From a virus: 45,748 bases of DNA. The stretch's first letter is position 1, and each line of letters starts with the position of its first letter. The notes beneath the pieces were generated by a model. It was not told the DNA's origin. It saw nothing but the letters and a program-made list of their open reading frames with translations, and did not search any database. The stretch lies in the IMG/VR virus record IMGVR_UViG_3300045988_020540, one strand, 5' to 3'. Positions 28,383 through 43,196 of the stretch are shown piece by piece. A program made the translations under genes and the position numbers.

Positions 28383-28398
28383 CCCTGTGACTCCTTCC

Positions 28399-28521
28399 TT
28401 ACATATACTGCTTCCACAGCTTTGCAAAAGTGCTTCTGCCGTCCCCGCCTTTCTTATTCAGACGGGTATATCCGGCACGTTTCATATTCGCTCTTGCGAT
28501 CATTCTCTTAAATTTCCTCAT
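28399..28521 (-). CDS. Very basic 40 aa peptide, not in the ORF track
   Basis: My translation is MRKFKRMIARANMKRAGYTRLNKKGGDGRSTFAKLWKQYM. It overlaps the 3' end of the upstream gene. Confidence 0.3.
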   Translation of the reverse strand: MRKFKRMIARANMKRAGYTRLNKKGGDGRSTFAKLWKQYM

Positions 28522-28801
28522 TACTTCTGCCCTCCATGTAACGGGGTTCGCTTTCCCCGATTGTTCTACAGTCAATCAGTTCCTTAATTTGTCCATCCAA
28601 CTCTACGGCTTTATTCAGATACCAGATTGCTTTCTGAATATCTTCCAGACCGTTCTTCCGTCTGTGACGGTAGATATACTTCAAGGCATTGCACAAACAG
28701 AAATCCTTCGTTGCCTGTACGCCCTGAGTCTCTACCATCACGTCAATGCACTCAAACTTCCCTGTTTCGTAGTGGGATGGATGATTCACATTGTCTGACA
28801 T
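28508..28801 (-). CDS. DUF3310-like phage protein
   Basis: The N-terminal NHPSHY...ECID motif and the RHRRKNGLEDIQKAIWYL region are typical of this family, from memory. Confidence 0.55.
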   Translation of the reverse strand: MSDNVNHPSHYETGKFECIDVMVETQGVQATKDFCLCNALKYIYRHRRKNGLEDIQKAIWYLNKAVELDGQIKELIDCRTIGESEPRYMEGRSNEEI

Positions 28802-28804
28802 ACA

Positions 28805-29569
28805 TTAGCCCTCCGTCTTGTAAGCTGCGATCATCTCGCCAAGATTCTTGATAAGCTGCTCACACTGAGAACGTGTTACCTGAGTGAAGCCATTGGTTTT
28901 CATGGCAATCTGCTGAACAAAATCTTCCTGATCCGGGTCTTTCTCCATCAGTTCCTTGCAGGCATTTTTCAGTGCTGCAATCTGCAAGTCATCTGCCTGT
29001 CCCTCAGTGTCTGTCAGAGTTTCCTTTGCTTCCTTACGTTCCGCAGGTGTAGCCGGGGCTTTCTGTTTCTTCTGAGACTTCTTCTCAGTCTTTGCTTTCT
29101 CTGGATTCGGTGCTTCAATCTCCAGTTCTTCCTCTTCCGGTTCAGAACCAAGCGTAGCGTCAATGTCATCCGGTTCAGTGATATCCAGAACTGCCATCCA
29201 GAGATAACGTCTGAGGTATGTAATGGATGAACCAAGTGCCTGCATCGGATTGGTTACTTCCTTACCCGCATTGCTTACGATAGGCTTAACCTCACGGTAC
29301 GGTACACGGAACTCAATAGGTGCTTCCTCAGAGTTGTCAGTGTTGTACACTCTCATGACAGCACCGTTTTCATCGGTGAAGTCAATGTCAGTGGTAAGAC
29401 CCACACGGGCGAAGATTCTGATTGCAGGAGGTACAATATCCTCCAACTCAAAATACTTGAACTCCAAGTGCATATTCTTACCGGACTTCTTAACCTTCTG
29501 GTTAAGGAACTGTAATCTTGCCTTTGCAAGTTTCTGTCTCACGTTCATACCTTCATAAATGTTTGCCAT
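28805..29569 (-). CDS. ERF-family single-strand annealing protein
   Basis: 254 aa. FKYFELEDI and GSSITYLRRYL followed by an acidic stretch match the ERF pattern. Confidence 0.65.
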   Translation of the reverse strand: MANIYEGMNVRQKLAKARLQFLNQKVKKSGKNMHLEFKYFELEDIVPPAIRIFARVGLTTDIDFTDENGAVMRVYNTDNSEEAPIEFRVPYREVKPIVSNAGKEVTNPMQALGSSITYLRRYLWMAVLDITEPDDIDATLGSEPEEEELEIEAPNPEKAKTEKKSQKKQKAPATPAERKEAKETLTDTEGQADDLQIAALKNACKELMEKDPDQEDFVQQIAMKTNGFTQVTRSQCEQLIKNLGEMIAAYKTEG

Positions 29570-29584
29570 TGTTATTGATCCTCC

Positions 29585-29752
29585 TTAATTTCTTGTAAAA
29601 ATGCTCTTGATAATCAGATAGATAACCCAGATTCCCAGTGCCAGTTTCCAAGTGAACAGGAAACCAAAACACATTGCCAGAATCCAGATCAGCAGGGCAG
29701 TAATCAGAAAACTGATTACAAGCCCGATGATAACTCCTAACAGATAAAACAT
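29585..29752 (-). CDS. Small membrane protein (55 aa), not in the ORF track
   Basis: My translation is MFYLLGVIIGLVISFLITALLIWILAMCFGFLFTWKLALGIWVIYLIIKSIFTRN. A GGAGG RBS lies upstream of the ATG at 29752. Confidence 0.5.
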   Translation of the reverse strand: MFYLLGVIIGLVISFLITALLIWILAMCFGFLFTWKLALGIWVIYLIIKSIFTRN

Positions 29753-29764
29753 AGCCAATCCTCC

Positions 29765-30469
29765 TTATTCTGCGAATACCCAGTCATCGGCAAGCATATC
29801 TGCCTGAGAAGCAAGCCAACCCATCTGCACACCGGAAGTTCCGACAAAAGCTACCGCCATATTACCGATTGCATCATGCTCACAGTTCACGATATCTCCG
29901 GTAGGTGCTTTGTAAGAGATTCCGCTTGCAAGCTGAATGTACTGCTTCTTGCCGTTCCATCCTTTGCGGGCTACCTTGTGTCCACGTTTCAGATACTTGA
30001 TTGCTTCCCCGAAAGAGAAAGTAGCTTCACCACCCATTGCAGGGCAGTTCTTAGTACTTGCAAGCACCCATTCATCGGAAAGAATGTTCAGAGTGGTGTA
30101 TTCAACTCTCTTAGTCTCACGGATATCCAGTTCTCTGCCGTCCTTCGTGTGCATCACGATAGTTTCCTTTGCAGCATCCCAGTACCAGTAACCGCCCCAA
30201 GACGGAAGTTTTACCGGGTAGCCCTGCTTCATCAGCTTGAACGCTTCCTTGAAATCCATCGGAGTCAGGTTTTCTACAACAACTTCCCAGTCACCTGTAG
30301 CAACCCACATGAGATCATATGGAAAAATCTCTTTTACATCACATTCAAAACCCTCTTCGTCATGGTTCACGATCATACCGTCTTTCTTATACCAGTAAGC
30401 GTTTTCCCACGCTTTCAGTTTGATCTTCTTACCTTCGTCCATAACCTTGCTCACTTCATGAAATTTCAT
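29765..30469 (-). CDS. Protein with three tandem DUF2829 (Tad2-like) modules
   Basis: The C-terminal module FSFGEAIKYLKRGHKVARKGWNGKKQYIQL...GWLASQADMLADDWVFAE fits the DUF2829 pattern well. Two more degenerate modules sit at about aa 1-65 (FHEVSKVMDEGKKIKLKAW...GDWEVV) and aa 70-139 (FKEAFKLMKQGYPVKLPSWGGYWYW...LSDEWVLA). Confidence 0.6.
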   Translation of the reverse strand: MKFHEVSKVMDEGKKIKLKAWENAYWYKKDGMIVNHDEEGFECDVKEIFPYDLMWVATGDWEVVVENLTPMDFKEAFKLMKQGYPVKLPSWGGYWYWDAAKETIVMHTKDGRELDIRETKRVEYTTLNILSDEWVLASTKNCPAMGGEATFSFGEAIKYLKRGHKVARKGWNGKKQYIQLASGISYKAPTGDIVNCEHDAIGNMAVAFVGTSGVQMGWLASQADMLADDWVFAE

Positions 30470-30473
30470 AGTC

Positions 30474-30668
30474 TTAGTCCTCCTTGTTTTCTTCGGTTGT
30501 ACCGAACAGAATCTTTCTTACATTACTTGCGAAAATCGTACTTGTCAGCGGAATGAGCAGTTTTCCCATTCCATCCAGTTTCGGATCACTCACCTGATCG
30601 TGAATAACCTGCTTTACTGCTGCGTCAAACTCTTCTGCTGTTACCATTTTTTTTGCTGAACTTTCCAT
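30474..30668 (-). CDS. Hypothetical protein
   Basis: 64 aa ORF coupled to the polymerase gene. Confidence 0.5.
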   Translation of the reverse strand: MESSAKKMVTAEEFDAAVKQVIHDQVSDPKLDGMGKLLIPLTSTIFASNVRKILFGTTEENKED

Positions 30669-30681
30669 GTTCTTGTCCTCC

Positions 30682-32655
30682 TTAATTGAACAACGCTAAT
30701 GACTTTTTCTTTAGCGAATTTATTTTTCTGGTATTCTTCCGTGGTGCTTTCACACCTAAAAACTTCCGTATCTGTTCCTTTGCCAGTTTGACATACCATT
30801 CTCTGTCCACAACGTCTATGGACAACTCATTATTGTTATCTACTATGCAGTGATCTGGCAGACTGGGAACTTTTGCGTCCTTCCCGGTAGTGGCGTGGGT
30901 CTTATAAATCTTTCCGTAACCTTTATTCTTGCAGGCATACACACGATTGACCTTCTGTACCGGAACTTTCTCACCACCGATTAACTGGTAGCATCCAGAA
31001 TATTTACCTCCGACTTTCGCTATCACCTGAAAATCAAGGATATTATTGCTTGCCGCAATGGTTTCTTCCGGTAGAGTCCCGTTCACAAAATACTCTTTCA
31101 TTGCTGTAGCCACGATGCAGGCATTGTTATTGATATTCCAAGCACCGCCACTCATGTTGTCCCATGCAGGTAAGCCCATTGTCGTGAAATCAATGTTGGC
31201 ATTGGTTAAGATCCCTCTTACCAGATTGCCACCCTTGACCTTCGGTTTGCCGTTACCTACAGGTACTTCTACATAATTGTTCACATCTCTCTGAACGATT
31301 TTCTGAATGAAATCCTCTTCCAGTTCAAAACCTGTTCTGTCCTGCCACTCCTGCGTAATCTCCTGCCATTTTGCTTCGTCAGACTTGTCAAAACTTACCA
31401 TGATACCATCCGTGTTAAGCTGAATGATCTTCAAGGTAGGACACTCTGCTACAAGGTGCATTGACAGTTCCAGAAGAAGTAGCTGCCCGGTGATACATAC
31501 AGAACGTCCCATGAGTGGATCATAGAGATCGTTATAGGAAATTCCGTTTTTACCGTTGAGCATTGCACCGTATGAGGTGTTTGCTACCAGTTTCAGGGCA
31601 TTTGCAGTTTTCTTGTCCCCGGCTTTCTTTGCTTTCATTCTCTCTTCCAACATATCCACGAAAATCTGAGGTGACGGTATGTTCCTGCTACAGAACCCGT
31701 ACTGTTGACCTTCTGAAAGTGGAACAGTCATAAGATGTGGATAGTAACTACCTACGTCCTTGTTTCGGATTGAACGGTTTTCCGTTGCTACCTCTACATA
31801 GTTCGGGATTGCTCCATGAATCCCTCCGTAGGCTATGGTACAAACACAATCACCTATCCTAAATTCAATGCTTGCACCCTTGATTTTCTTACCGTGTTGG
31901 TCGTAACCACCAAACAAGTCAATGTCCGGTACGTTCGGATCATGCAGACGGTCAAAGAAATCAAATATTTCCTGTGGAATATACTGCCGAAGCAGCTTAT
32001 CCGGGTATTGGTAATTTCTTTCATCTGTCCAAGGTTTTTCCGGTTTCTCAGCTTGCAGGTACACGCTTGTCAGTTTGGCATTTGTCATATACATTGCCTT
32101 ACGGTCTGTCAGACCTCTCTTCGCTCCTACAGCAACTTTGTTATCCAGATATCCTTGTCTCAGTTTCCAGAGAATTTCCGTAGCATCTACGTCATATCGG
32201 CAGTAGTATTCAGTCCTTCTTCTCTCACTCTCCGTCAGTGGACGGTCAATGTTGAAGTCAACCCCTGTTTCCTCAATCGGTATTCCAAGGTGTGCTTCAA
32301 TAGCTTTCAGTGAGATTCCGTCCTGACAATCATCTCTCAGGTCAAAGCTGTCAAAGAATACTCTGTACTCTTTCAGTGATGGGATATCCCATCCGCTTAA
32401 CTCTTCTTGAATGATAAGATCATTGACTTTCTTCACCTCTTCTGGTGTAAAGCCACACATGACTGCCTTTAGTATGAAATTATCGTAGTGCTTATTGTTG
32501 AACCCGCCTAAGAACGGGTCACGTTCCATAAATGCTATTACAGCATCGTTGTCATTCCAGATGGAGATGTGTTCGCCTGTGATAACATCTTTGAAATCAA
32601 AGAGCCAGTCATAAGCGAATACCTCACAGTCGAATATGTATGTTCCCTCAACCAT
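30682..32655 (-). CDS. Family B DNA polymerase with 3'-5' exonuclease domain
   Basis: Exo I is FDCEVF, Exo II is NNKHYDNFIL and Exo III is YCRYDVDAT. Pol motif A-like is KDVGSYYPHLM, motif B is KLVANTSYGAM and motif C-like is QLNTDGI. I prefer the start at 32655 (MVEGTY). Confidence 0.8.
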   Translation of the reverse strand: MVEGTYIFDCEVFAYDWLFDFKDVITGEHISIWNDNDAVIAFMERDPFLGGFNNKHYDNFILKAVMCGFTPEEVKKVNDLIIQEELSGWDIPSLKEYRVFFDSFDLRDDCQDGISLKAIEAHLGIPIEETGVDFNIDRPLTESERRRTEYYCRYDVDATEILWKLRQGYLDNKVAVGAKRGLTDRKAMYMTNAKLTSVYLQAEKPEKPWTDERNYQYPDKLLRQYIPQEIFDFFDRLHDPNVPDIDLFGGYDQHGKKIKGASIEFRIGDCVCTIAYGGIHGAIPNYVEVATENRSIRNKDVGSYYPHLMTVPLSEGQQYGFCSRNIPSPQIFVDMLEERMKAKKAGDKKTANALKLVANTSYGAMLNGKNGISYNDLYDPLMGRSVCITGQLLLLELSMHLVAECPTLKIIQLNTDGIMVSFDKSDEAKWQEITQEWQDRTGFELEEDFIQKIVQRDVNNYVEVPVGNGKPKVKGGNLVRGILTNANIDFTTMGLPAWDNMSGGAWNINNNACIVATAMKEYFVNGTLPEETIAASNNILDFQVIAKVGGKYSGCYQLIGGEKVPVQKVNRVYACKNKGYGKIYKTHATTGKDAKVPSLPDHCIVDNNNELSIDVVDREWYVKLAKEQIRKFLGVKAPRKNTRKINSLKKKSLALFN

Positions 32656-32663
32656 GAGATCAC

Positions 32664-32855
32664 CTACCTTAGAGCCTTTTGCACTTGCAGGAGTTCTTGT
32701 CGTGCCTGCACACATCTACGATGGATAGACTCTCTTGAATGTTCTGGTGGAATACATCCCCATTTATCGGGTTCGGCACTCAGACTTTCCTTGACTCCTT
32801 CCATCAGAAGAAGGGCTGTATCAAGGTGTCTTGCACTTTCTTCACTAATCTTCAT
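32664..32855 (-). CDS. Hypothetical protein (63 aa)
   Basis: The start at 32855 (MKISEES) overlaps the stop of the upstream small ORF. The track ORF extends to 32912. Confidence 0.45.
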   Translation of the reverse strand: MKISEESARHLDTALLLMEGVKESLSAEPDKWGCIPPEHSRESIHRRCVQARQELLQVQKALR

Positions 32856-33024
32856 AAGGGTAATCTCCAAACCAATCATTTGCGTAGGAGAATAACACCA
32901 TATAGATTTCACAGATTACACACACGATGAAGGGAATCCATGAATCTGAATCAATAAGACAAGCTGACACAATCCATACAAGGCTAGCCGCCCAAGCTAT
33001 AGCTTTCAAAATTTTATTCTTCAT
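32845..33024 (-). CDS. Small membrane protein (59 aa), not in the ORF track
   Basis: My translation is MKNKILKAIAWAASLVWIVSACLIDSDSWIPFIVCVICEIYMVLFSYANDWFGDYPYED. The RBS GGAAGGAG lies 7 nt upstream of the ATG at 33024. Confidence 0.5.
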   Translation of the reverse strand: MKNKILKAIAWAASLVWIVSACLIDSDSWIPFIVCVICEIYMVLFSYANDWFGDYPYED

Positions 33025-33026
33025 GG

Positions 33027-34418
33027 TTATTCTCCTTCCAAAATCCTACAGTTACATTTTCGGTAACTGGTGCATCGTTTCTTGAACGACTTTTCCAGTG
33101 ACCGGATGAAGTCTACATAATCATAAGCAATCGGTTGTTCCTTCCCTTCAAAGGTTCGTGCGATACGCCCAACACTCTGAACGATCACCGCATAGTCCTT
33201 CTGAGGGGTTGTCAGATATAGCCTGTCCAACCGTGGGATATCAAGCCCCTCTTTTGCCAGTGAGTACGATGCAAACAAGTATCGTTTCTTGCCTGTCCTC
33301 ATGTCCTCAATAGCCTGCTCACGCTCTGCTTTCTTCTTCTTAGTTGTCATGCCGCCATCAATTACAGCAGCTTGTGATTTCAAGTCCGGGGGTAGTCCTT
33401 CATACAGAAGTTTCAGATGATCCACTCTCTCGGAGAGGATCAGGTTGTAATGCTCCCGGTTGCCTACAAGGTCATTCATGATAAGCTGATTCCGGTCTGT
33501 ATGAGAAGTAAGGTAAGTAATCATTTTGCAATAGTTGATCGTTCCATCACTGTTCAGAAACGCAGAATCAAGTTTCACGCCTGTACCTTTCGGCTGTACA
33601 TCTACCGTCATGACTCTGGACTTTACAGTTTCATCCGGGACTGTGTAGATAACGTGTCCCAACATAGCGTATGTAGCCTTTATCAGTCCGTCTGCCCTAT
33701 GGACGGTTGCGGACAATCCATATTTATGTCTTGCCCTGAGTGTGTTCAGCACCTTACTGAACTGGGTTACTGCTGTAGGTGTCCCGGCTACCCGGTGACA
33801 TTCATCTACAATGATACAGTCCCATGTGTCACGGTACTGATCCAAGTCAACCTTGCACATCGTTTGGATGGTTGCAAAGGTCATTGTCTCTCCGATATTG
33901 ACTTTTCCTTCCGTGATAGTCCCCAGAAGTGACTTGTCAATATACTGTGCTGCCCTGTTCTTACTCTGGGTCAGCAGGTCTTTTGTATGGGTAAGCCAAA
34001 GTGTTTTAAGCTGCATGGCACACGCAAGGGCTATGCCGATCTGCGTCTTACCTGACCCGGCAGGTGACTGTAAGATTCCGTAATGATTGATAATCATTGC
34101 CCCTACAGCTTCCTCCTGATAGTCATACAGCGGTACTTTCGCTCCCTTATAATCTACCTTTACTTGTTTGGCAAAGAGTTTCTTCACGTCCCCTTCCAGA
34201 AGCGGGAGGATTGATCGTAAGCACCCAAACGGGATGATTACTGAGTCACCATCAACCTCATACATTACAAGGGTTCTGGGTGTATCTCCCAACCAGAGAT
34301 TCATTCTGGCTTTCTTCTGATATTCCGGGTTCGGTATTTCTAAATGCTTTTTACACCAGTCAACCATGTCCGGTGAAGGGTTCGTGATTCGTAATCGTGA
34401 TCCGATTTCCGTAATCAT
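33027..34418 (-). CDS. SF2 DEAD/DEAH-box type helicase
   Basis: Walker A is SPAGSGKTQIG, the DEAH-like box is IIVDECHRV, and the C-terminal helicase motifs include VQSVGRIAR. Confidence 0.8.
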   Translation of the reverse strand: MITEIGSRLRITNPSPDMVDWCKKHLEIPNPEYQKKARMNLWLGDTPRTLVMYEVDGDSVIIPFGCLRSILPLLEGDVKKLFAKQVKVDYKGAKVPLYDYQEEAVGAMIINHYGILQSPAGSGKTQIGIALACAMQLKTLWLTHTKDLLTQSKNRAAQYIDKSLLGTITEGKVNIGETMTFATIQTMCKVDLDQYRDTWDCIIVDECHRVAGTPTAVTQFSKVLNTLRARHKYGLSATVHRADGLIKATYAMLGHVIYTVPDETVKSRVMTVDVQPKGTGVKLDSAFLNSDGTINYCKMITYLTSHTDRNQLIMNDLVGNREHYNLILSERVDHLKLLYEGLPPDLKSQAAVIDGGMTTKKKKAEREQAIEDMRTGKKRYLFASYSLAKEGLDIPRLDRLYLTTPQKDYAVIVQSVGRIARTFEGKEQPIAYDYVDFIRSLEKSFKKRCTSYRKCNCRILEGE

Positions 34419-34825
34419 TCAAATTCCTCCACCCACTGTCGAAAAGTCTTGTACTGCGGAAATTCCTTTTCAGTGATCGTTCCCTCACCGTAAAGCTGTC
34501 TCAGCATGAGTTCATCAAAAGACACCATGTAAATACGTCCGTCTTTCAGCTTCATAGCAAAGTAACAATGCTCATTCCCTGTCTGCTCCCACAGTGTCAT
34601 TGCACCTTCCTGATTACCTTCAATCCGGGATAACGGGAAGCGGTTGGTTTCACATTCCTTGCAGTCAATCAAGACCGGGATGCCATTCTTAACCGCAATC
34701 ACATCTGCGGGCTGTCCTACCTGATTCTGTGCCATGTTGTGTGCCCAGAAACCATGTAAGGCAAGCAGTTCACAAAACTCTTCCTCAAAGTGGTTTCCAT
34801 TTTTCTTGTTACTGTTGGTGGACAT
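34415..34825 (-). CDS. PD-(D/E)XK Holliday junction resolvase-like nuclease (RecU/Hjc-like)
   Basis: 136 aa. GNHFEEEF and PADVIAVKNGIPVLIDCKEC fit the E...D...(D/E)xK layout. Confidence 0.5.
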   Translation of the reverse strand: MSTNSNKKNGNHFEEEFCELLALHGFWAHNMAQNQVGQPADVIAVKNGIPVLIDCKECETNRFPLSRIEGNQEGAMTLWEQTGNEHCYFAMKLKDGRIYMVSFDELMLRQLYGEGTITEKEFPQYKTFRQWVEEFE

Positions 34826-35373
34826 TACGCTTCCACCATTTGCACCTGACGGTGCAATTTAAGATTCTTCGGATTGAATACACAAGCCGGGGCAACCCCA
34901 CTGCTGTAGTACGCAAAGTCGCCGTCCAGATAACCCGTATTGTACACACCGCGAACGTAGTCACTGTTCCCGGCGTCTGAGATATACCAAGGAGTGCAAG
35001 TCCACATCCACTCAGGAAGCAGCGGAACGTGCTTACGGTACTTTCTGTATTCATCACAACTCAGGATGAAAACTCTATCTGTGACTGTGCCGTAACGGTC
35101 ATCTCCGTTGTCAGCTACCAAGTCAACCTCATGAGGAATAAGATTATCCTCACCCAACACAGGAAGCAGTTCATTGAGCAGCTTTCTACGCAGGCTTGAC
35201 TTTGCGTAGTTGTTGCAACCGTCATCATCGAAGCTGTACTCTTCATTGTTCCAAGCGGAAGTCATAACTGCCAGAACACCGCCATCCACGTTGTTGTCAA
35301 GGACGATCCATTCAAAACCCTTGAAGCCGAAACGCTCACCTGCACTTAATACACCAATGTTTTCTTCTTTCAT
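34825..35373 (-). CDS. Second (remote) DGR target protein, small, with a C-terminal variable region
   Basis: The C-terminus ...SDAGNSDYVRGVYNTGYLDGDFAYYSSGVAPACVF is encoded by VR2 and is homologous to the TR and to the VR1 end of 42051..43196. I prefer the start at 35373 (MKEENIG) because a GGAGG lies 8 nt upstream. Confidence 0.8.
   Translation of the reverse strand: MKEENIGVLSAGERFGFKGFEWIVLDNNVDGGVLAVMTSAWNNEEYSFDDDGCNNYAKSSLRRKLLNELLPVLGEDNLIPHEVDLVADNGDDRYGTVTDRVFILSCDEYRKYRKHVPLLPEWMWTCTPWYISDAGNSDYVRGVYNTGYLDGDFAYYSSGVAPACVFNPKNLKLHRQVQMVEA
34840..34857 (-). promoter_or_regulatory. Hairpin 23 nt downstream of VR2 (candidate DGR target-recognition element)
   Basis: The minus strand reads TTGCACC-GTCA-GGTGCAA, a 7 bp stem with a 4 nt loop. 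It lies inside the last codons of the gene. Confidence 0.6.
34881..34977 (-). repeat. DGR variable repeat 2 (VR2)
   Basis: Gapless alignment to TR 41449..41545. All 17 mismatches fall at plus-strand T of the TR, which is A on the coding strand. Confidence 0.85.
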
Positions 35374-35375
35374 GG

Positions 35376-35525
35376 TTAATTCCTCCATTCATAATCTTTG
35401 TGGTACTTTGCCTTGTACCATTCTTCAAACTCTTTCTTGTGTTCCGTTGACTGGAAGTAGTCTTTGACTCTCTCAATCAACTGGGAACACAAAGCACTTT
35501 CTTCCATCGTAGGAACTGCCATCAT
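35376..35525 (-). CDS. Small protein (49 aa) between cro-like gene and DGR target 2, not in the ORF track
   Basis: My translation is MMAVPTMEESALCSQLIERVKDYFQSTEHKKEFEEWYKAKYHKDYEWRN. The ATG overlaps the upstream TGA, and an AAGGAG RBS is present. Confidence 0.45.
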   Translation of the reverse strand: MMAVPTMEESALCSQLIERVKDYFQSTEHKKEFEEWYKAKYHKDYEWRN

Positions 35526-35746
35526 CACTCCTTAACAAGAACAGAACCTTCTTCGTACTTATCAAGAATGTCGTGAGACAATTCGATGATTGCATCTGCT
35601 TTGCTTCCGCTTCGTGACCCGGCAAGCACGGAACTCATTTCCGTCTTATCCGTAACGATTCCTCTAAGACCTAACTGATTGATAAGCCACACCTGAGTCA
35701 ACTGGTGCTTTTTGAGTCGGCTACGAATGTCCTCACGTTCTGCCAT
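35525..35746 (-). CDS. Cro-like small HTH regulator, first gene of the early operon
   Basis: LTQVWLINQLGLRGIVTDKTEMSSVLAG looks like an HTH. I prefer the start at 35746 (MAEREDI) because of the AAAGGAGG RBS. It is divergent from the cI-like gene. Confidence 0.6.
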   Translation of the reverse strand: MAEREDIRSRLKKHQLTQVWLINQLGLRGIVTDKTEMSSVLAGSRSGSKADAIIELSHDILDKYEEGSVLVKE

Positions 35747-35787
35747 GTCGTGTACCTCCTTTCGTTGATTTTGCTTATCAACTAAAG

Positions 35788-35816
35788 TTGACAAAATACT
35801 CTTCAAAGGTTATAAT
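35788..35816 (+). promoter_or_regulatory. Consensus sigma-70-type promoter pointing toward the cI-like gene
   Basis: TTGACA at 35788..35793, exactly 17 nt, then TATAAT at 35811..35816. Confidence 0.55.
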
Positions 35817-35926
35817 ATGGGTGTCGAACCAATATAACCATTGAAAACCGTCAGGGGTAAAATTAAATCCCCGGAGGGCTTGTTTTCTTTACCCTATTTT
35901 GTAAACAACTCTTGTTGACAAGACCT

Positions 35927-35955
35927 ATAATAATCCCTATCTAGGAATTTGTCAA
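35927..35955 (-). promoter_or_regulatory. Strong promoter pointing toward the cro-like gene and early operon
   Basis: The minus strand reads TTGACA (35955..35950), a 17 nt spacer, then TATTAT (35932..35927). Confidence 0.5.
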
Positions 35956-36007
35956 GCGGTTTTAGGAAAATTTTTAAATTTTATTCCCTAGTTAGGAGGA
36001 TTTAGGA

Positions 36008-36376
36008 ATGAATAATGATTTATTACTAAAACGCATTGATGAATTATGCACCGAAAAAGGAGTAAAGAAAACAACTGCTTTCACTGAAAGTCACGTTGGT
36101 AAGAACTTCGCCAGTAACCTGAAAACCTCTAACCCTAGCCAAAAGAACCTTGCTTTATTGGCTCAGTATTTTGATTGTACTGTTGATTACCTCTTAGGTA
36201 ATTCCGATGACCGGGGAACTGTAACAATCCCTATTCAGGAATCTATTCAGCTTTCTGAGGAAGAACGTATTTTGATTTCCGCATTTAGGAGTGCTTCTAT
36301 AGAAGGACGCATGAGAATTATCCAAGTCTGTATGAATGAAAAGGATGCAAAAGGGGAAACTATCATTGCAGGATAA
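36008..36376 (+). CDS. cI-like XRE-family repressor
   Basis: 122 aa. An N-terminal HTH region (KKTTAFTESHVGKNFASNLK ... LALLAQYFDCTVDYLLG) is followed by a short C-terminal domain. It lies directly upstream of the integrase. Confidence 0.7.
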   Translation: MNNDLLLKRIDELCTEKGVKKTTAFTESHVGKNFASNLKTSNPSQKNLALLAQYFDCTVDYLLGNSDDRGTVTIPIQESIQLSEEERILISAFRSASIEGRMRIIQVCMNEKDAKGETIIAG

Positions 36377-36403
36377 TAAGCATTGAAGAATGGAGGAAGA
36401 ACC

Positions 36404-37987
36404 ATGTACGAAGAGATTAAGACTGCCTGTCTATATCTGCGATATTCAAGCAGCAACCAAACTGAACAGTCCATAGAAGGTCAGATGCACGTCTGCCAAG
36501 ATTTCTGCAAGAGACACAATATCAGAATTGTAGAGATGTACATAGATCGTGCCACCTCTGCCAGTAAGGACATAGAGAAAAGAGTAGAGTTCTTGAAGAT
36601 GATTAAGGACTCAGAAAAGGGGAACTTTGATGCAGTCATCGTCTATAAACTTGACCGCTTTGCCCGATCCCGGTATGACTCAGCTACTTACAAGTACCGT
36701 CTGAAAAGAAACGGTGTACAGCTTGTCTCTGCCACTGAGAACATCACCCAAGACCCGGAAGGAATCATTCTTGAATCCGTTCTTGAAGGTATGGCAGAGT
36801 TCTATAGTGCGGAACTCTCACAGAAAATCAATCGTGGTATGAGGGAGTCAGCTATGAAGCATAACTCCATCGGTGGGGCTATCCCTCTGGGGTACAAGAC
36901 CGTGGATAAGAAACTGATAGTTGATGAAACCACTGCACCTATCGTCCGGGAAGCATTTCAGATGTATGCAGACGGTGAGTCCGTAGCTGAGATATGCAGG
37001 ACATTCAATAACCGTGGGTACAAGACCTCAAAGGGAACACGCTTCGGGAAAAGCAGCTTCACCAAGATTTTCCGTAATGAGAAATACATCGGAGTCTATA
37101 AGTACCATGACTACCGGGCAGAAGATGTTATCCCACCGATCATAGATAAAGCCCTCTGGGACAGAGTGCAAGTGAGAATCGGTAAGATAAAGAAAGCCCC
37201 TGCCCGAAACAAGGCAAGGCATACTTACCTTCTGACAGGGAAACTATTCTGCGGACACTGCGGCAGTGCCATGAACGCTGACGGCAACTCTAACGGCTAT
37301 CTATACTACAGATGTTACGGTAAAAAGAATCTGGATAAACAATGTAATAAGCGGAACATGGAAAAGAACTTGATTGAAAGACTGGTTGCACAGGACGCAA
37401 TGTCATTCCTAACCGATGAATATATTGAGAAGATTGCTACTATTGCCTGTGACCGGAACAGACAAGAGATTGAGAGTGATTCACCCATCCCTGTGATCCG
37501 TGACCGGATTAGACAGGTTGACGTGTCTTTGAACAATCTGCTGAAAGCTATCGAAACTGGGTCTGCCCCGGATATGCTTGTAAAGCGTATGGGAGAACTT
37601 GAAACTGAGAAGAAAGATATGGAAGTGCAGCTTAAAAAGGAAATGGCACACCAAGTCTATATTGATAAAGAGCAGGTAATCTTCTGGTTAGAGAAGTTCC
37701 GTGAAGGGGATATCAATGACGAAGAGTTCTGTCAGACCGTGATTGATCTGTTCGTAAATTCTGTGACTGTATGGGATGAACCGGACAATAAGTTCAGGAT
37801 CACCATAGCCTATAATCTCACCTCTATACCGCAAAAAACCTACCGCCTGTCGAAAGACGGTAGGTTATCGGATTACGCTTCCAATACTCCACCATTGAGT
37901 GCAAATCCAATGATCTCAGGAAGCCTTATGATTCATACCTTTACAGTCACCGTACACCCGCAGAAACGGGGAAGGAAAACCCTGTAA
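36404..37987 (+). CDS. Large serine recombinase (integrase)
   Basis: The N-terminal resolvase domain has CLYLRYSSSNQ (catalytic Ser region) and VIVYKLDRFARS. A recombinase domain follows, then a zinc ribbon (CGHCGSAM...YYRCYGK) and a coiled-coil C-terminus. I prefer the start at 36404 with its GGAGG RBS. Confidence 0.9.
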   Translation: MYEEIKTACLYLRYSSSNQTEQSIEGQMHVCQDFCKRHNIRIVEMYIDRATSASKDIEKRVEFLKMIKDSEKGNFDAVIVYKLDRFARSRYDSATYKYRLKRNGVQLVSATENITQDPEGIILESVLEGMAEFYSAELSQKINRGMRESAMKHNSIGGAIPLGYKTVDKKLIVDETTAPIVREAFQMYADGESVAEICRTFNNRGYKTSKGTRFGKSSFTKIFRNEKYIGVYKYHDYRAEDVIPPIIDKALWDRVQVRIGKIKKAPARNKARHTYLLTGKLFCGHCGSAMNADGNSNGYLYYRCYGKKNLDKQCNKRNMEKNLIERLVAQDAMSFLTDEYIEKIATIACDRNRQEIESDSPIPVIRDRIRQVDVSLNNLLKAIETGSAPDMLVKRMGELETEKKDMEVQLKKEMAHQVYIDKEQVIFWLEKFREGDINDEEFCQTVIDLFVNSVTVWDEPDNKFRITIAYNLTSIPQKTYRLSKDGRLSDYASNTPPLSANPMISGSLMIHTFTVTVHPQKRGRKTL

Positions 37988-39379
37988 TTACAGAAGTCTG
38001 TTGACTTCTTTCTGCACAGCAGCATAATCATATCCTGCGGCAGTCAACTTGTTCTTACGGTCTGTGCCGTTGCCCCACTTGCCTGCGATAACTTCCTTCG
38101 CAATCTGAGTCACAGATTTCTTACTGGAAGTGCTGCCCTTCGCCAGTTCATTGACTTTCGCCTGAACCTGAGAGTAATTGTACCCGGCAGCTTCCAGTTT
38201 CTTCTTACGGTCATCACCGTTGCCCCACTTGCCTGCAAGCACCTCTTTTGCGACTTCGGTAACGGACTTTGTAGGTGTGGTAGTTTTACCGCCTGCAAGT
38301 CTGTTTACCGCAGCCTGCACCTCAGAGTAGTTATATCCTGCGGCAGTAAGAGCGTTCTTTCTGGCATCACCATTACCCCATGCACCTGCAAGAACTTCCT
38401 TTGCTACTTCATCTACAGATTTCTTAGTAACAGAAGTGCTGCCGCCATCTGGATATCTCAGAACATGATTCCACGGATAATTACGGTAAGCCCTGATAAG
38501 AAACTCTTTTCCGGTCTGATCTCCCGGTGTTCCACCTGTAGCCGTACCTTTTTCATTGATAGACGCTTCCACTTCCATACCATTACCGCAATACATTGCG
38601 ACATGGTGTTTGTCATTCAGCAAAATATCACTTCGTTTCAGTCCTGCACCTGTAGCCAGATTTACCTTATTGGTAACATCTTCAAAACCGAAGTGTTTGA
38701 ATACGGCAAGCATTACTCCCGTATAAGCACATCCGTACTTTTCAAAAGAGTAGGTTTTTACCGGAATCCCTGCGTGTTCCCATGCAGTATATACAGCGGA
38801 AGAACAATCGTAGTCACCATCTTCGCCCCAACGGTGTGTCTGGCAATATCCATGTCTGTCATCTTTCGCAGTATCTTCCATCCATTTGATAGCTGTCTCT
38901 GCTTTACTCATTTTTGTTACCTCCTTATCATACTTCGTAAGATTGTATTGTTCAACCAGTTTCATGTTATTAGTCACATAAGTAGAACTTGTGGCATATC
39001 CGTCAGCCTTGATGGTTTCCAGATATTTCTTCGGATCAGTGATCCCTTTAAGGTTCTGATATCTGGCAAGCTGAATGAACTCAAAGTAACCCTTGATACC
39101 TTCCTCCATAGAATCATAGACACGGAAGTTGTCTTTAATCGTAGTCAGTGTACCCACGCTGTACTCTTCCTGAGTAGTCATGTTGACACTCTTGCCTGTC
39201 CACTTCGTACCACATTTAAGTCCGAAGTAGTTATGGTATCGGGCGGCAAGTTTGGAATTGCCCCAACCAGATTCAAGAATTGCCTGTGCAATAATCGGAC
39301 TATGTACTTTGATTCCGTACTGGGCTGCATACTTCTGTACGAACTTCGCTACCTGTTCAATAAATTCCTGATTTGTCAT
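37988..39379 (-). CDS. Modular endolysin: N-terminal glucosaminidase (GH73-like), central Cys-peptidase-like domain and three C-terminal CW_7 repeats
   Basis: AQAILESGWGNSKLAARYHNYFGLK is a GH73 signature. YDCSSAVYTAW...HHVAMY suggests a Cys/His peptidase. GxWGNGxxRKxxLxxAGYxY occurs three times. Confidence 0.85.
   Translation of the reverse strand: MTNQEFIEQVAKFVQKYAAQYGIKVHSPIIAQAILESGWGNSKLAARYHNYFGLKCGTKWTGKSVNMTTQEEYSVGTLTTIKDNFRVYDSMEEGIKGYFEFIQLARYQNLKGITDPKKYLETIKADGYATSSTYVTNNMKLVEQYNLTKYDKEVTKMSKAETAIKWMEDTAKDDRHGYCQTHRWGEDGDYDCSSAVYTAWEHAGIPVKTYSFEKYGCAYTGVMLAVFKHFGFEDVTNKVNLATGAGLKRSDILLNDKHHVAMYCGNGMEVEASINEKGTATGGTPGDQTGKEFLIRAYRNYPWNHVLRYPDGGSTSVTKKSVDEVAKEVLAGAWGNGDARKNALTAAGYNYSEVQAAVNRLAGGKTTTPTKSVTEVAKEVLAGKWGNGDDRKKKLEAAGYNYSQVQAKVNELAKGSTSSKKSVTQIAKEVIAGKWGNGTDRKNKLTAAGYDYAAVQKEVNRLL
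37991..38419 (-). repeat. Three CW_7 (Cpl-7-like) cell-wall-binding repeats of about 41 aa
   Basis: The repeats are SVDEVAKEVLAGAWGNGDARKNALTAAGYNYSEVQAAVNRL, SVTEVAKEVLAGKWGNGDDRKKKLEAAGYNYSQVQAKVNEL and SVTQIAKEVIAGKWGNGTDRKNKLTAAGYDYAAVQKEVNRLL. Confidence 0.85.
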
Positions 39380-39426
39380 AATGTATCACTCCTTCGTGAA
39401 GAGGGGAGAATGGCTCTCCCCTGTGA

Positions 39427-39861
39427 TTACTGATCTGTGTTATCCTCAGAGTCAGATTTCTTTTTAAGTACCTCAATCGCAGATGTAATTGCCGGGGGAA
39501 TGTTGATTCCCATAAGACCTGCATTTTCCACAATGGAAATAGTCTCATTCGCAATAAAAGCAATCACTACTGCATCTCTAATAAAGTTCGTCCCGGTCAC
39601 AAGGTCAAGGCGTGTAGCCACCAGAACCATCAGAAGAGTAATGCACTTACGGCACAGTCCCTTCCATCCTGCTCTTGACTCCAAAGCACCGTTTTCCGTT
39701 TTACCGGAGTTATGGAACACACCTGCCACAAGCAGACCTGTCACATAATCAATAGCCATGAAAATTACCAGTGTTACCAGTGCGGCATCCCAACCGCCAA
39801 ACAGAGAAGCAATCACGCTTCCGACAACTCCAATAGCTGTACAAATTCCATCCTTCATCAT
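39427..39861 (-). CDS. Holin (phage_holin_4 / TcdE-like)
   Basis: Multiple TM helices and the motif AIDYVTGLLVAG...GWKGLCRK. It is directly upstream of the endolysin. I prefer the start at 39861 because of the GGAGG RBS. Confidence 0.75.
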   Translation of the reverse strand: MMKDGICTAIGVVGSVIASLFGGWDAALVTLVIFMAIDYVTGLLVAGVFHNSGKTENGALESRAGWKGLCRKCITLLMVLVATRLDLVTGTNFIRDAVVIAFIANETISIVENAGLMGINIPPAITSAIEVLKKKSDSEDNTDQ

Positions 39862-39865
39862 CTCT

Positions 39866-40021
39866 TTAGTCCTCCTGTTCATCGTAGTCCTCTCCGGTAA
39901 TCTCTTTGAAATTCTCCGGGCTGATCCATCCCTTTTTTACTGCGTCCCTGACTCTCTTTTCCTTCCAGAGTCCATTGTCATAGAAATTCTTAACCATCTC
40001 AAACTTACTCTTCTTCGCCAT
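39866..40021 (-). CDS. xkdX: XkdX-family small protein (51 aa), not in the ORF track
   Basis: My translation is MAKKSKFEMVKNFYDNGLWKEKRVRDAVKKGWISPENFKEITGEDYDEQED. It matches the XkdX pattern (YxxGLW...V...GWIT.E.Y.EITG) and sits before the holin. Confidence 0.65.
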   Translation of the reverse strand: MAKKSKFEMVKNFYDNGLWKEKRVRDAVKKGWISPENFKEITGEDYDEQED

Positions 40022-40199
40022 GATCCTGTACCTCCTGTTCGTCATCTTCCTGCTCCATCTCGATATCTGTCATCATAGCCAGATATTCAATGTCACTGTT
40101 CGCCTTTGCGATCTGTGCCTGCATTGCAGCGTTCTTCTGACGCTCTTTTACAAGCTGTTCTCTTGCACTGATAAATCCAAACATTTGCTTTCCCTCCAT
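40005..40199 (-). CDS. Small acidic coiled-coil protein
   Basis: 64 aa ORF overlapping the 3' end of the RT ORF. An alternative start MFGFISA lies 5 codons in. Confidence 0.4.
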   Translation of the reverse strand: MEGKQMFGFISAREQLVKERQKNAAMQAQIAKANSDIEYLAMMTDIEMEQEDDEQEVQDHGEEE

Positions 40200-41281
40200 A
40201 AATTCTTATAATATTGATCCATACAGATAATGAGGTTGTGACAATTTCTCCTTGCCCTCCTACCCGGAGATTTCCTTTTCTTGCTACTCTCATTACCTAC
40301 ATGGGCTTTCCAACTCTCATAACACCTGTCAACCTCTTCCTTCGTCATGTACCCTTGCTTTGCCCTTTCTACCAACTTCCGCAGCTTTCGCCGTTCGTGT
40401 GATAACTTCTCTGGCAGTAATGTCATGACTACCTTTCCGGTCTTTACCAACCGGAAGCGGAAACCTAGAAACTTGATACCCTGAGTCACCTTGAAAAGCT
40501 GTGTTTTCTTCGGACTCAATCTCAAACCTCTTGCGGTCATCCAAGCATCTATCTTTATCAAACACTCCTGTAAATAAGCCTTGTCCTCATGGATGATAAT
40601 GAAATCATCGTTGTACCGGACATAGTGCTTAATATGAAGTTGCTCTTTTATAAAATGGTCGAAGTCATCTAAGACTGCTAACTGTATAAGCTGTGTCGTT
40701 TCTGAACCAAGACCCATACCTACCTCTGGATCATCACCCTGATTGAAGCTGTCAATGATCCGCTTAATTTCTCCGTTCACCCATTCATCCGTGACTCTCT
40801 TCGTTACCGCTGAATAAGCCAGTTCATGAGAGGTGCTACCGAAGAAATTCTTCAAGTCTGCTTTGAGTACCCACCCTTCCGTACCGTGTTTCCGGTAATA
40901 CTTTTGTAGGTGGCAGATCAGCCTTTTCCTTGCGAACTCTGTTCCTCTTCCGTCCTGACAAGCACAGTTATCATAGATAAATGATTTTGTCATGGTATCG
41001 TAAAAGTAGTTGTCGCATAGGCTTCTCTGAAATACTCTGTCCTTGATTCTTGTACTTACAATGTCTCTTTCTTTTGGCTCATACACTTTGAACTGTGTAT
41101 AAGCATCTAACTTATATGTACCATTCTCCACGCTCTCCTTTAGCTTATGAACATTAACCAAACCATTCTTTACATACCCGGCTACACTGTCTTTCCACAT
41201 GACGTTGTTCTTGCAATGCTGCATAGCCCGGTACAGATTATCAAAGTCACAGACTTCATCTCTCACTTCGGATTCCATCAT
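40148..41281 (-). CDS. DGR-type reverse transcriptase
   Basis: 377 aa with RT motifs. The YxDD box appears as VRYNDDFIII. LGSETTQL sits in the position of the DGR-specific [I/L]GxxxSQ motif. The gene is directly downstream of the TR. Confidence 0.85.
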   Translation of the reverse strand: MMESEVRDEVCDFDNLYRAMQHCKNNVMWKDSVAGYVKNGLVNVHKLKESVENGTYKLDAYTQFKVYEPKERDIVSTRIKDRVFQRSLCDNYFYDTMTKSFIYDNCACQDGRGTEFARKRLICHLQKYYRKHGTEGWVLKADLKNFFGSTSHELAYSAVTKRVTDEWVNGEIKRIIDSFNQGDDPEVGMGLGSETTQLIQLAVLDDFDHFIKEQLHIKHYVRYNDDFIIIHEDKAYLQECLIKIDAWMTARGLRLSPKKTQLFKVTQGIKFLGFRFRLVKTGKVVMTLLPEKLSHERRKLRKLVERAKQGYMTKEEVDRCYESWKAHVGNESSKKRKSPGRRARRNCHNLIICMDQYYKNLWRESKCLDLSVQENSL

Positions 41282-41552
41282 GTATATTTCTCCCGTAAAT
41301 CATTGGTTGCCGTTTATAGTGATACTGCCGTAAGGACGGCAATCACATCAGCACTCCGTTTTCGCCCTACTATATTCAGGTCAGGGTGACGATTCCTTGT
41401 GTGAGTGCATTGATTTCAGCCTATGCCTACTTTATTACTAGCGTTTCTCACAATCCGGGGCAACCCCATTGCTGTTGTTCGCATTGTTGTTGTTCAGATT
41501 ACCCGTATTGTTCACATTGCGAACGTTGTTACTGTTCCCGGCGTTCGGGGTA
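41282..41552 (-). ncRNA. Predicted DGR RNA: template repeat plus 168 nt spacer upstream of the RT
   Basis: A non-coding stretch lies between the TR 3' end (41450) and the RT start (41281). It contains a perfect hairpin, TGCCGT-CCTT-ACGGCA on the transcribed (minus) strand, at 41326..41341. Confidence 0.5.
41450..41552 (-). other. DGR template repeat (TR)
   Basis: In the frame of the targets the coding strand reads TPNAGNSNNVRNVNNTGNLNNNNANNSNGVAPDC, with 15 AAY codons. It has 35 adenines on the coding strand. It is not part of any plausible ORF. Confidence 0.9.
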
Positions 41553-41586
41553 AACACATATCTTACAATCGTCAACCTTATATCAT

Positions 41587-42006
41587 TTACTTGTATCTAT
41601 TTTCATCAGACCTCTTCCAGTTCCGAAGAAGATTCTGGACATTGATTACAAGTCCTGTCCAGTAGTCCATCTTAGAACCTTCGATTCCGAAAGTACGGTA
41701 AGCAATATCCATCATGGTTAGCAAGGAATATGTCTATGCCAAAGCCTGAACTTGATATCCTCTCCGTAATTCCCAGTCGGCTTTCCAATGTTCAGACTCA
41801 GGATTCACATACACTGAATTTGCCATATTGATAAGTCGGCTGATTTCTACCGCAGCATCTACGATCTTTGCGGTGATGCACCAACGGTATCTCTTCGGGA
41901 AGCAACTCTCATTACTGCAAATATGGATAGTATGTGTAGCCAACTCATTTGCCTTTGTGATTACTTCCAACTTTGAAGTACCTCTCTTTGACTTCGGTAC
42001 TGACAT
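41587..42006 (-). pseudogene. avd: avd (accessory variability determinant, four-helix-bundle type) interrupted by an in-frame TAG at 41734..41736
   Basis: The N-terminal part (42006..41737, MSVPKSKRG...YQVQALA) and the 42 aa ORF 41715..41587 (MMDIAYRTFGIEGSKMDYWTGLVINVQNLLRNWKRSDENRYK) are in the same frame. They are separated only by TAG plus 6 sense codons. The combined length of about 139 aa ends 35 nt before the TR. Confidence 0.65.
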
Positions 42007-42022
42007 TTTCCTCACTCCTTTC

Positions 42023-42050: not shown

Positions 42051-43196
42051 TTAGATTACGTTACAAGCCGGGGCAACCCCATGGCTGTTGTTCGCACCGT
42101 AGTAGCTCAGATCACCCGTACTGCGCACACCGCGAACGTTGCCACTGTCCCCGGCGCTCGGGGTACGCTCCCACTGCCACTGCGGACTACCGTTTTTATA
42201 CTTCACACGGTTACTATCAGCACCCGTGTTCGGGGAAGTATAATCAGAATAGTCAGAGTAGTAAGGGTACGGCTCACCTTCCTTGACACTGCTCACTTCA
42301 TCACCCATGAATAACTCACGTCTGGAAAGCAGGAAGAACTTGTCCTTTGTGGTATCAGAACCACCGCCGTCAGTTACGTTATTACGACAAGTAACCTTTG
42401 TGGTCTTACCGATAACTGCAAGGAAATCTGCATCCATTCCATTCATAAATCCTGCCTTATTGGAAACCCAAGAAGGAGGTCTATCATAATTGGTAGCAGG
42501 TGTCCAAACAGAACCCGCAACTTTGTCACTGTTCAACCATCCACGAACCGCAGACTCTTTATAGTTATTAGAGCCGTAGCACATTCTCTGACCGCTGTTC
42601 AGCGTTGTCAGTTCCGTACCGCCTGTACCCTCTGTGGGCTTCACAGTTTCAATAACTGTGGTGCTTGTAGGACTGGCGTAAGTTTTAATGTCGTATTTCA
42701 GCGGGTCTTGATCCCAAGCACCATTCCATACGATCTGTCCACCCTTCGGAACTGCTTTCGCAAGAGTAAACTGGTAAGTCTTACCGTTACCCATACCACC
42801 ACTCCAACCGTTCTTAGGAGTTACATGATATGTACCTGCGGCAAGTTCCTCTTCTGCATAATACATAGCTGCCGGGGCGTTAAACTGTACATAATCAAAC
42901 ACCTCATGAAGCTGTAAAGTCATGCTGTGAGTGAACTGCTTGTCTGCCGGGGTATCAATGTCAAAACCGATGATATCCCACACCAGAGTTGTGCTACCTC
43001 TCTGACAGGTCAACTGATCTCCCACCGCAAATACCTTGCTTGCCAGTCCCTTACGAACAAGTGCCTGCACATCACTCCAAGATGTAGGTTTCAGGCTGCC
43101 ACCCTGTCCGGTTGCAATCGCAGCAAGGAACTGGTTCATAGTGTCCATCTTCTCTGCGAACGTATCGTCAGAGAGAAAACCAAACTGATTGCTCAT
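42051..43196 (-). CDS. DGR target protein 1: tail-fibre tip / receptor-binding protein with a C-terminal variable region
   Basis: 381 aa ORF directly after a coiled-coil fibre shaft gene. The C-terminus TPSAGDSGNVRGVRSTGDLSYYGANNSHGVAPACNVI is encoded by VR1. Confidence 0.85.
   Translation of the reverse strand: MSNQFGFLSDDTFAEKMDTMNQFLAAIATGQGGSLKPTSWSDVQALVRKGLASKVFAVGDQLTCQRGSTTLVWDIIGFDIDTPADKQFTHSMTLQLHEVFDYVQFNAPAAMYYAEEELAAGTYHVTPKNGWSGGMGNGKTYQFTLAKAVPKGGQIVWNGAWDQDPLKYDIKTYASPTSTTVIETVKPTEGTGGTELTTLNSGQRMCYGSNNYKESAVRGWLNSDKVAGSVWTPATNYDRPPSWVSNKAGFMNGMDADFLAVIGKTTKVTCRNNVTDGGGSDTTKDKFFLLSRRELFMGDEVSSVKEGEPYPYYSDYSDYTSPNTGADSNRVKYKNGSPQWQWERTPSAGDSGNVRGVRSTGDLSYYGANNSHGVAPACNVI
42063..42165 (-). 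repeat. DGR variable repeat 1 (VR1)
   Basis: 103 bp gapless alignment to TR 41450..41552. All 17 mismatches fall at TR positions that are A on the coding strand. Confidence 0.9.

Follow-up and report, generated by a model that had tools for sequence, protein, structure and literature searches.

A small gene of the predicted early operon as a very likely remote second target of the single diversity-generating retroelement of a temperate gut phage

The phage sequence analysed here, a stretch of 45,748 nucleotides which is called the window below, contains a single diversity-generating retroelement (DGR) and two variable copies of its template repeat (TR), one of which lies far from the retroelement, in a small gene named target 2. 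We consider it very likely that this copy, the variable repeat VR2, functions as a remote second target for the DGR of this phage, carried by a protein with a C-type-lectin-like fold; this judgement concerns the target and its fold, and the role of the protein is weighed separately. The features on which the argument depends are the following:

34825..35373, minus strand, target 2, 182 aa; ATG at 35373, preceded by a GGAGG ribosome-binding site; phrog_9958
34881..34977, minus strand, VR2, residues 133-165 of the 182, including the predicted beta-hairpin 139-143/149-153
41449..41545, minus strand, TR, with 34 adenines and 15 AAY codons, between avd and the reverse transcriptase gene
40148..41281, minus strand, reverse transcriptase (RT), 377 aa, with a YNDD motif; RVT_1, E 1.7e-20
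41734..42015, minus strand, Avd accessory protein, 93 aa; phrog_3206 'Avd protein of DGR', E 2.7e-10
42051..43196, minus strand, target 1, a DUF6273 protein of 381 aa, encoded where the tail-fibre region ends; DUF6273, E 1.5e-18
42062-42158, minus strand, VR1, within target 1, at its C-terminus, with a hairpin at 42023-42040

On the minus strand the cassette has the order target 1, Avd, TR and RT. The RT starts 168 bp past TR and carries, besides YNDD, the motif LGSETTQ. Its similarities in NCBIfam, to group II intron and Drt models, are sub-threshold only, and no NCBIfam model was found that names RT, Avd, target 1 or target 2. No Pfam match was obtained for Avd (41734-42015). The small size that had been claimed for the gene hosting VR2, 182 aa, is confirmed by the ORF together with its ribosome-binding site.

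The alignment of VR2 (34881-34977) with TR (41449-41545) extends over 97 nt without gaps and contains exactly 17 mismatches, each of which (17/17) corresponds to a T on the plus strand, that is to a TR adenine on the coding (minus) strand. With 34 adenines in the 97 nt of TR, the probability that 17 of 17 random mismatches land on A is about 6e-10. An earlier note on this DNA had given the same gapless alignment with the same 17 adenine mismatches, and the recomputed alignment agrees with it; substitutions at non-adenine positions of TR, which the note would have taken as contrary evidence, are absent among the 17. When both strands of the window were scanned for further copies of TR, only VR1 was found besides VR2. 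It differs from TR by 17 mismatches at TR adenines and by one boundary mismatch, at position 97. Ten of the substituted positions are common to VR1 and VR2, seven occur in VR2 only and seven to eight in VR1 only; as they overlap just partly, the two repeats have been diversified independently, and the earlier proposal, in which VR2 draws on this template as a second target with a diversification of its own, holds, with its 10 shared and 7 private positions. TR, VR1 and VR2 are read in one common frame, and 14/14 altered codons of VR2 are nonsynonymous. The TR codons cannot yield stops, and the theoretical repertoire is about 2.8e19 protein variants. Measured from start to start, TR lies 6568 bp from VR2 and 613 bp from VR1.

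Both target proteins have DUF6273-type C-termini, and it could be argued that the similarity of TR and VR2 comes from ordinary paralogy or gene conversion between the two DUF6273 genes, with no retroelement involved. We attach practically no probability to this explanation, since the mismatches lie exclusively at adenines of a non-coding template placed beside an RT (the P of about 6e-10 given above), target 1 and target 2 are alignable by BLASTP across the VR only, and the adenine-only pattern recurs in relatives that have different TRs. It is by the adenine-only mismatch pattern that plain paralogy of VR2 is excluded.

Diversification was judged from public homologues, that is between genomes. 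The target 2 protein has 1512 matches among clusters of 90% identity, a count typical for a hypervariable protein. In the 120 closest protein matches the entropy rises above near-zero values only at residues 132-158, where the variable residues nearly all fall at TR codons that contain adenine. The gene of the window and its 10 closest public relatives are all mutually different, essentially only at TR-A positions, and the mean column variability in these 11 genes amounts to 0.139 within the VR and to 0.009 within the scaffold. A comparison of 18 unique close genes shows variation at 33/34 TR-A positions and at 21/63 non-A positions (p=2e-10), and positions with three or more alleles number 23 among TR-A, 2 among the non-A positions of the VR and 9/452 outside it. 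Moreover, four divergent relatives (L009, L010, L042 and L088) possess distinct TRs of their own, situated about 7 kb upstream, and encode small proteins 45-72% identical to target 2. In these the mismatches between TR and VR2 are found at TR adenines in 18/18 cases (L088), 23/24 (L009), 15/16 (L010) and 12/15 (L042), the non-A exceptions of L042 being situated at the 5' edge.

The elements by which a target would be recognised are present as well:

34881..34899, minus strand, IMH of VR2, at the 3' end of VR2, GGGGTTGCCCCGGCTTGTG, with C where the IMH* of TR has A
34840..34857, minus strand, hairpin/cruciform of VR2 (from DNA folding), TTGCACC-GTCA-GGTGCAA

VR1 and VR2 both end in GGGGTTGCCCCGGCTTGT, the counterpart in TR being ...GGATTGT, which is the difference between IMH and IMH*. 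The same C-versus-A difference is repeated in the four divergent relatives named above (L009, L010, L042 and L088). The recurrence of this difference and of the adenine-only pattern in relatives with different TRs indicates that the two-target architecture is old and has been maintained.

The hairpin of VR2, with a 7-bp stem and a 4-nt loop, is located inside the 3' tail of the ORF, 24 nt past the TR homology. That of VR1 (42023-42040, CCACCCC-GTTA-GGGGTGG) has the same 7-bp stem and 4-nt loop and lies 25 nt past VR1, and DNA folding gave no hairpin after TR. In relatives the VR2 hairpin is found at an equal offset and the changes in its stem are compensatory. Among nine distinct hairpin sequences, one of them a G-T intermediate, 6/6 counted pairs are 100% paired and three change on both sides, compared with 17-46% pairing in controls slid along the sequence. 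These stem changes alter the encoded peptide, which reads LHRQVQ, LCRQAH, LRRQAQ or LPRQRQ in different relatives. As the stem covaries while the peptide changes, selection acts on the nucleic-acid structure. The hairpins agree in form and distance with the target-recognition element established by experiment for BPP-1, a GC-rich stem of 7-10 bp with a 4-nt loop, 4-34 bp past the VR (PMC3240598). The loops of the present hairpins, GTCA (VR2) and GTTA (VR1), are of the form GYNA and do not follow the GRNA consensus of that work.

From the established mechanism of DGRs, the RT together with Avd would copy the TR RNA into cDNA, misincorporating at the template adenines, and the cDNA would then replace either VR1, 613 bp off, or VR2, 6.6 kb off. 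Each VR would be recognised through its own GC-rich IMH and the 7-bp/4-nt hairpin downstream of it.

A different history would be that VR2 is a relic, either an ex-target or a recombined diversified C-terminus, whose adenine pattern is historical and on which the DGR no longer acts. Some members of the family do show decay of this kind: in L071-L082 the VR is not hypervariable, the IMH is degenerate and there is no hairpin, and L036-L069 are likewise without the hairpin. In addition, copies of target 2 that are 62-88% identical occur in phage backbones with no other gene common to the window, and a search of IMG/VR for the TR-type IMH* GGGGTTGCCCCNGATTGT gave 19 matches, none of them in these unrelated-backbone contigs; within +/-10 kb of the loci concerned no TR was found. 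No read-level variation was seen in cultures of Lelie or CP11 (Borodovich 2024, PMC11792537). Nevertheless, we regard a relic as quite improbable for VR2, as the lineage of the window keeps an intact IMH and an intact hairpin, the latter by compensatory changes, RT, Avd and TR are intact, and the 11 closest genes all differ essentially at TR-A, with the contrast between VR and scaffold already given. The loss of both VR variability and cis-elements in L071-L082 means that the scaffold also exists as a protein of fixed specificity.

The product of target 2 is an acidic protein of 20.7 kDa with a pI of 4.6. The profile phrog_9958, which has no function assigned there, covers its residues 2-169 (E 1.7e-42). 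Against DUF6273 (PF19789) it scores 19.5 bits (E 9.5e-4), formally sub-threshold with respect to the cut-off of 23.5, and homologues 85-92% identical to it have precomputed PF19789 matches; target 2 is homologous to DUF6273 though it falls below the Pfam gathering threshold. AlphaFold2 modelling from a shallow alignment of 92 close homologues gave a pLDDT of 42, and from 124 diverse representatives a pLDDT of 94.7 and a pTM of 0.90, with one compact alpha/beta domain. In this model the VR forms a beta-hairpin with strands 139-143 and 149-153, and the C-terminal tail, where the DNA hairpin is encoded, is of lower confidence. Searching BFVD with Foldseek returned 18 viral proteins at E < 1e-3, most of them annotated DUF6273, with TM values of 0.6-0.77. 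In the PDB there was one significant Foldseek match, the N-terminal CTLD-like domain of 9qa6 (E 5e-5, query-normalised TM 0.55), canonical C-type lectins giving weak matches only, and a profile search of PDB sequences with target 2 found nothing below E 0.3.

The model thus predicts, with confidence, a single C-type-lectin-like domain of DUF6273 type that presents the VR on a beta-hairpin. The C-type-lectin fold, which the earlier note had put forward as something to look for by structure prediction, was recovered in this way, through a well-scored model and its CTLD match. The 9qa6 domain, from an IgA peptidase of Thomasclavelia ramosa, is a CTLD core according to its depositors (PMC12237041). 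The domain belongs to a secreted metallopeptidase of 845 residues; its identity to target 2 is 14%, it is no DGR target, and the match implies nothing about a shared function. The suggestion that target 2 might be secreted or exposed at a surface is disfavoured: it has no signal peptide and no membrane segment (maximum Kyte-Doolittle value 0.91 in a 19-residue window), and a secreted or surface role was dismissed on these grounds.

The surroundings of target 2 are as follows:

35927..35955, minus strand, strong sigma-70-like promoter, TTGACA-17-TATTAT, 11/12 match, upstream of the cro-like gene
35525-35806, minus strand, cro-like gene with weak regulator similarity (phrog_1468, E 9e-4) and no Pfam match
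35376-35528, minus strand, 50-aa ORF directly upstream of target 2, its stop in the ribosome-binding-site region of target 2
34415-34825, minus strand, RecU-like Holliday-junction resolvase, its ATG overlapping the stop of target 2
33027-34418, minus strand, DEAD/ResIII helicase, a downstream early gene
30682-32715, minus strand, DNA polymerase (phrog_1252), a downstream early gene

The operon order proposed before (cro-like gene, small ORF, target 2, resolvase, helicase, polymerase) is confirmed, with 50 aa for the small ORF, and target 2 does stand outside the tail module, as the third gene behind a divergent switch promoter. Divergent promoter-like sites are found at 35788-35955, those on the plus strand facing a cI-like regulator (phrog_8) and a large serine recombinase. 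The site at 35927-35955 is probably the early lytic promoter that drives target 2. Between cro and target 2 neither a promoter-like nor a terminator-like site was found, the absence of terminator-like sites extending back to this promoter, and a separate 'moron' promoter for target 2 was dismissed because no promoter-like site follows cro. Beyond the polymerase come genes for a Tad2-like anti-Thoeris protein, ERF, NrdD and a D5-like primase, and then the terminase (12509-14254) and the portal; the anti-Thoeris gene shares the operon with target 2, which is located about 21 kb upstream of the terminase. This arrangement suggests that target 2 is synthesised early and in the cytoplasm, the timing being read from gene order only.

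The order cro, small ORF, target 2, RecU and helicase persists in relatives with as little as about 45% identity, so that homologues of target 2 do occupy the early operon of related phages, where the earlier note had proposed to search for them. In the unrelated backbones the neighbours are genes for SSB, RNase H, a DNA methyltransferase, tRNA nucleotidyltransferase and a DHH phosphoesterase. More distant members adjoin a DNA methylase and a dUTPase, or a PAPS reductase, or are placed between SSB and a Lar restriction-alleviation gene in an operon led by cI/cro. In FP_Toutatis, Lelie and nd4 as well, the homologue is surrounded by early or replication genes. The contexts sampled, which cover at least seven unrelated backbones, include no homologue of target 2 beside tail genes. 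The family comprises 1152 clusters at 50% identity (E <= 1e-3), mostly of 170-300 aa, and a Pfam scan of the N-terminal extensions of its longer members revealed no informative domain. The closest genome matches to the window are Coprococcus and Blautia MAGs. A megablast of positions 27000-45748 against GenBank phages gave no match, which means that the phage itself is not a deposited isolate.

What a diversified protein would do in such a position can be read in two ways. Target 2 would be made early, in the cytoplasm, and would bind a variable ligand, and we find it quite possible, short of probable, that it acts inside the cell on a variable host component, in counter-defence or in host takeover. 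The earlier note's suggestion of a host factor or a defence component as the ligand draws on the position and the neighbours of the gene. The other reading keeps the same functional DGR target and makes it an adhesin, either attached to the virion or released, which would serve as an auxiliary protein for receptor binding or decoration, directed at the bacterial surface or at gut glycans, and would simply have its gene outside the structural module. Its C-type-lectin-like fold is shared by target 1 and by viral proteins annotated as RBP or tail fibre, Tyr, Ser, Gly, Asn and Asp abound among the selected VR residues, as they do in binding sites, three Cys are invariant, and receptor binding has been proposed by Baykov 2023 (PMC10743442) and by Egorov & Atkinson 2024 (bioRxiv 10.1101/2024.10.15.618418). 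However, target 2 lacks both a signal peptide and any N-terminal domain for anchoring or trimerisation, Mtd was retrieved with it neither by PDB sequence search nor by Foldseek, its gene is far upstream of the terminase, and the family keeps to early, replication or accessory settings, never beside tail genes in the contexts sampled. The adhesin is a possibility which we rate only a little below the intracellular role.

We lean towards the intracellular role over the virion-bound or released adhesin because of the recurrent non-structural position across unrelated backbones, the lack of an anchoring domain and of an export signal, and the anti-defence genes close by. Against it, to our knowledge, stands the fact that all experimentally characterised phage DGR targets are surface or receptor-binding proteins. 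The occurrence of the target 2 domain also in target 1 and in tail-fibre-like proteins is a further observation on that side. Carrying the intracellular reading further, one may picture an early, cytoplasmic, DGR-diversified binder that serves as an adaptable counter-defence or host-takeover factor, a phage 'antibody', from a family of more than 1000 clusters (50% identity) in Clostridia phages which is consistently placed in early or accessory modules; this picture we offer as speculative and rather doubtful.

The biology of phage DGRs has been explained almost entirely through tropism switching by tail fibres. This explanation does not accommodate a widespread second target if the latter has no virion anchor, is made from the earliest operon and is placed beside replication and anti-defence genes. 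If proteins of the target 2 type do act inside the cell, DGRs would also be tools of phage counter-defence. Remote targets were, by its own account, beyond the detection of the largest DGR survey, that of Roux et al. (PMC8144416). The present locus is a clean test case, as it combines intact cis-elements and cassette with abundant natural variants and a confident model.

The earlier note had implied that a remote early target was something new. This was overstated, as four reports precede it: three of them (PMC10743442, PMC11792537 and bioRxiv 10.1101/2024.10.15.618418) describe related gut phages with a two-target layout that includes a small remote DUF6273 protein, the fourth (PMC12629997) remarks on distal second VRs close to counter-defence genes, and the present locus alone shows nothing that is unreported in kind by these papers of 2023-2025. 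The papers that describe homologues leave the function undecided, mostly with receptor-binding guesses (PMC10743442; bioRxiv 10.1101/2024.10.15.618418), and contain no virion proteomics of these proteins.

In phages nd4 and nd12 a tentaclin is accompanied by 'tgt2', a small single-domain DUF6273/C-lec protein with a 3' VR (PMC10743442). Both nd4_tgt2 and nd12_tgt2 are homologous to target 2 (tblastn, 34% identity across some 90% of the query, with E values of 1e-18 and 3e-14 respectively) and, like it, are single globular domains with a 3' VR beta-hairpin and a TR in common with a larger DUF6273 target; the nd4 gene, moreover, is situated among replication genes. These second targets are longer, with 234 and 294 aa against the 182 aa of target 2, and their partner is a tentaclin with an N-terminal VR, whereas the VR of target 1 is C-terminal. 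The hosts of the two systems also differ, nd4 and nd12 being gut myoviruses and the present phage a temperate, siphovirus-like phage of Lachnospiraceae.

Lelie and CP11 have a large and a small DUF6273 target, and adenine-specific variation at both CP11 VRs has been reported across cognate genomes (PMC11792537). In FP_Toutatis, gp24 is a core DUF6273 gene 17.5 kb from TR (bioRxiv 10.1101/2024.10.15.618418). Lelie orf58 and Toutatis gp24 are homologous to target 2 (29% identity, with more than 90% of the query aligned), and in these phages, as here, a large and small DUF6273 pair depends on one TR, with the small target far from the cassette. They belong to a different phage lineage and host family, and target 2 differs in being placed directly in the cro-led, switch-proximal operon and in its intragenic covarying hairpin, a feature undescribed in the Lelie/CP11 and Toutatis papers.

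[quoted passage not shown] Those phages are mostly of Bacteroidota, and their likeness to target 2 is one of description.

With the DGR of BPP-1 the present system shares adenine mutagenesis from TR to VR, a 3' IMH, a downstream hairpin and a C-terminal VR in a C-type-lectin-like fold (PMC3240598). Unlike Mtd of BPP-1, target 2 has no beta-prism or beta-sandwich domains for tail attachment, is away from the cassette and from the tail module, and has a hairpin loop of GTCA instead of GRNA. A single domain of 182 aa encoded by an early-operon gene does not correspond to an Mtd-like receptor-binding protein. To the published descriptions our analysis adds the covarying intragenic hairpin, the early-operon position kept over deep divergence and in unrelated backbones, and the existence of non-DGR orthologues of the scaffold.

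The scaffold of the small target protein (product of the gene at 34825-35373, - strand, which carries the variable repeat VR2) occurs also as a non-diversified protein. This is indicated by orthologues that are 62-64% identical in IMG/VR contigs (loci L071-L082, gene ~10001-10546), in which the region equivalent to VR showed no hypervariability, no hairpin was present downstream of it and the IMH, the element at the VR 3' end, was degenerate (GGAATTCTCCCTGCTTGT).

Another group of copies in IMG/VR contigs (loci L036-L069), about 70% identical to the small protein, is also without the hairpin. These copies retain the IMH-like GGGGTTGCCCCTGCTTGT and their VR variability is raised about 2-fold. 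No template repeat was found for them within +/-10 kb, nor by a pattern search for IMH*, the template counterpart of the IMH.

The predicted structure of the small target product (model m1778400ac39b) had only one significant neighbour among solved structures, PDB 9qa6. The part of this entry matched by the model is the lectin-like N-terminal domain of an IgA protease from a gut bacterium, Thomasclavelia ramosa.

The early operon that contains the small target also includes, about 4.4 kb downstream of it, a gene encoding a protein whose C-terminal part is a Tad2-like domain:
29765-30469 (-), Tad2-like (Thoeris anti-defence 2) protein, 234 aa, Pfam E 4.6e-28

Elsewhere in the window, a + strand gene island (15283-17287) is found within an otherwise minus-strand genome:
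15283-15333 / 15456-15506, inverted repeat of 51 nt ahead of the + strand genes
within 15283-17287 (+), two ORFs of 141 aa and 114 aa
16520-17287 (+), FtsK/SpoIIIE-like ATPase, 255 aa
The inverted repeat carries promoter-like TTGACAATATCAT motifs, and the RBS/start region of the two ORFs is duplicated (15600-15638 and 16080-16118).

Two further repeats were identified, one immediately upstream of the primase gene and bearing repeated TACCCTACA motifs, which could be a replication origin or a regulatory site, and the other, which may contain operator sites, at and close to the divergent promoters of cI/cro:
18123-18237, inverted repeat of 55 nt, 75% complementary, 5-nt spacer
18234-19715, D5-like primase gene
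35922-35968 and 36216-36262, direct repeat of 47 nt, 72% identity

The lysis genes have the DGR cassette on one side and the integrase on the other, and the endolysin is composed of a glucosaminidase domain, an NlpC/P60-like or Amidase_5-like region, an ELLD domain and three CW_7 repeats:
37988-39379 (-), endolysin
39427-39882, holin
The two ends of the window (1-430 and 45664-45748) have imperfect repeats in common, each about 55-85 nt long, which fall within tail-fibre-like ORFs (Gp58-like / Peptidase_S74 at 45005-45733). Both window ends probably lie within a repetitive fibre gene that belongs to a contig either circular or circularly permuted.

The start of the following gene coincides with the stop codon of the small target, about 15 nt beyond the VR2 hairpin:
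34415-34825 (-), RecU-like Holliday-junction resolvase
Both genes were found jointly in two otherwise unrelated backbones (loci L028 and L032), where RecU is 97-100% identical. This adjacency may be a coincidence; Guo et al. 2011 (PMC3240598) speculated that the DGR cruciform is a possible substrate of junction-resolving enzymes.
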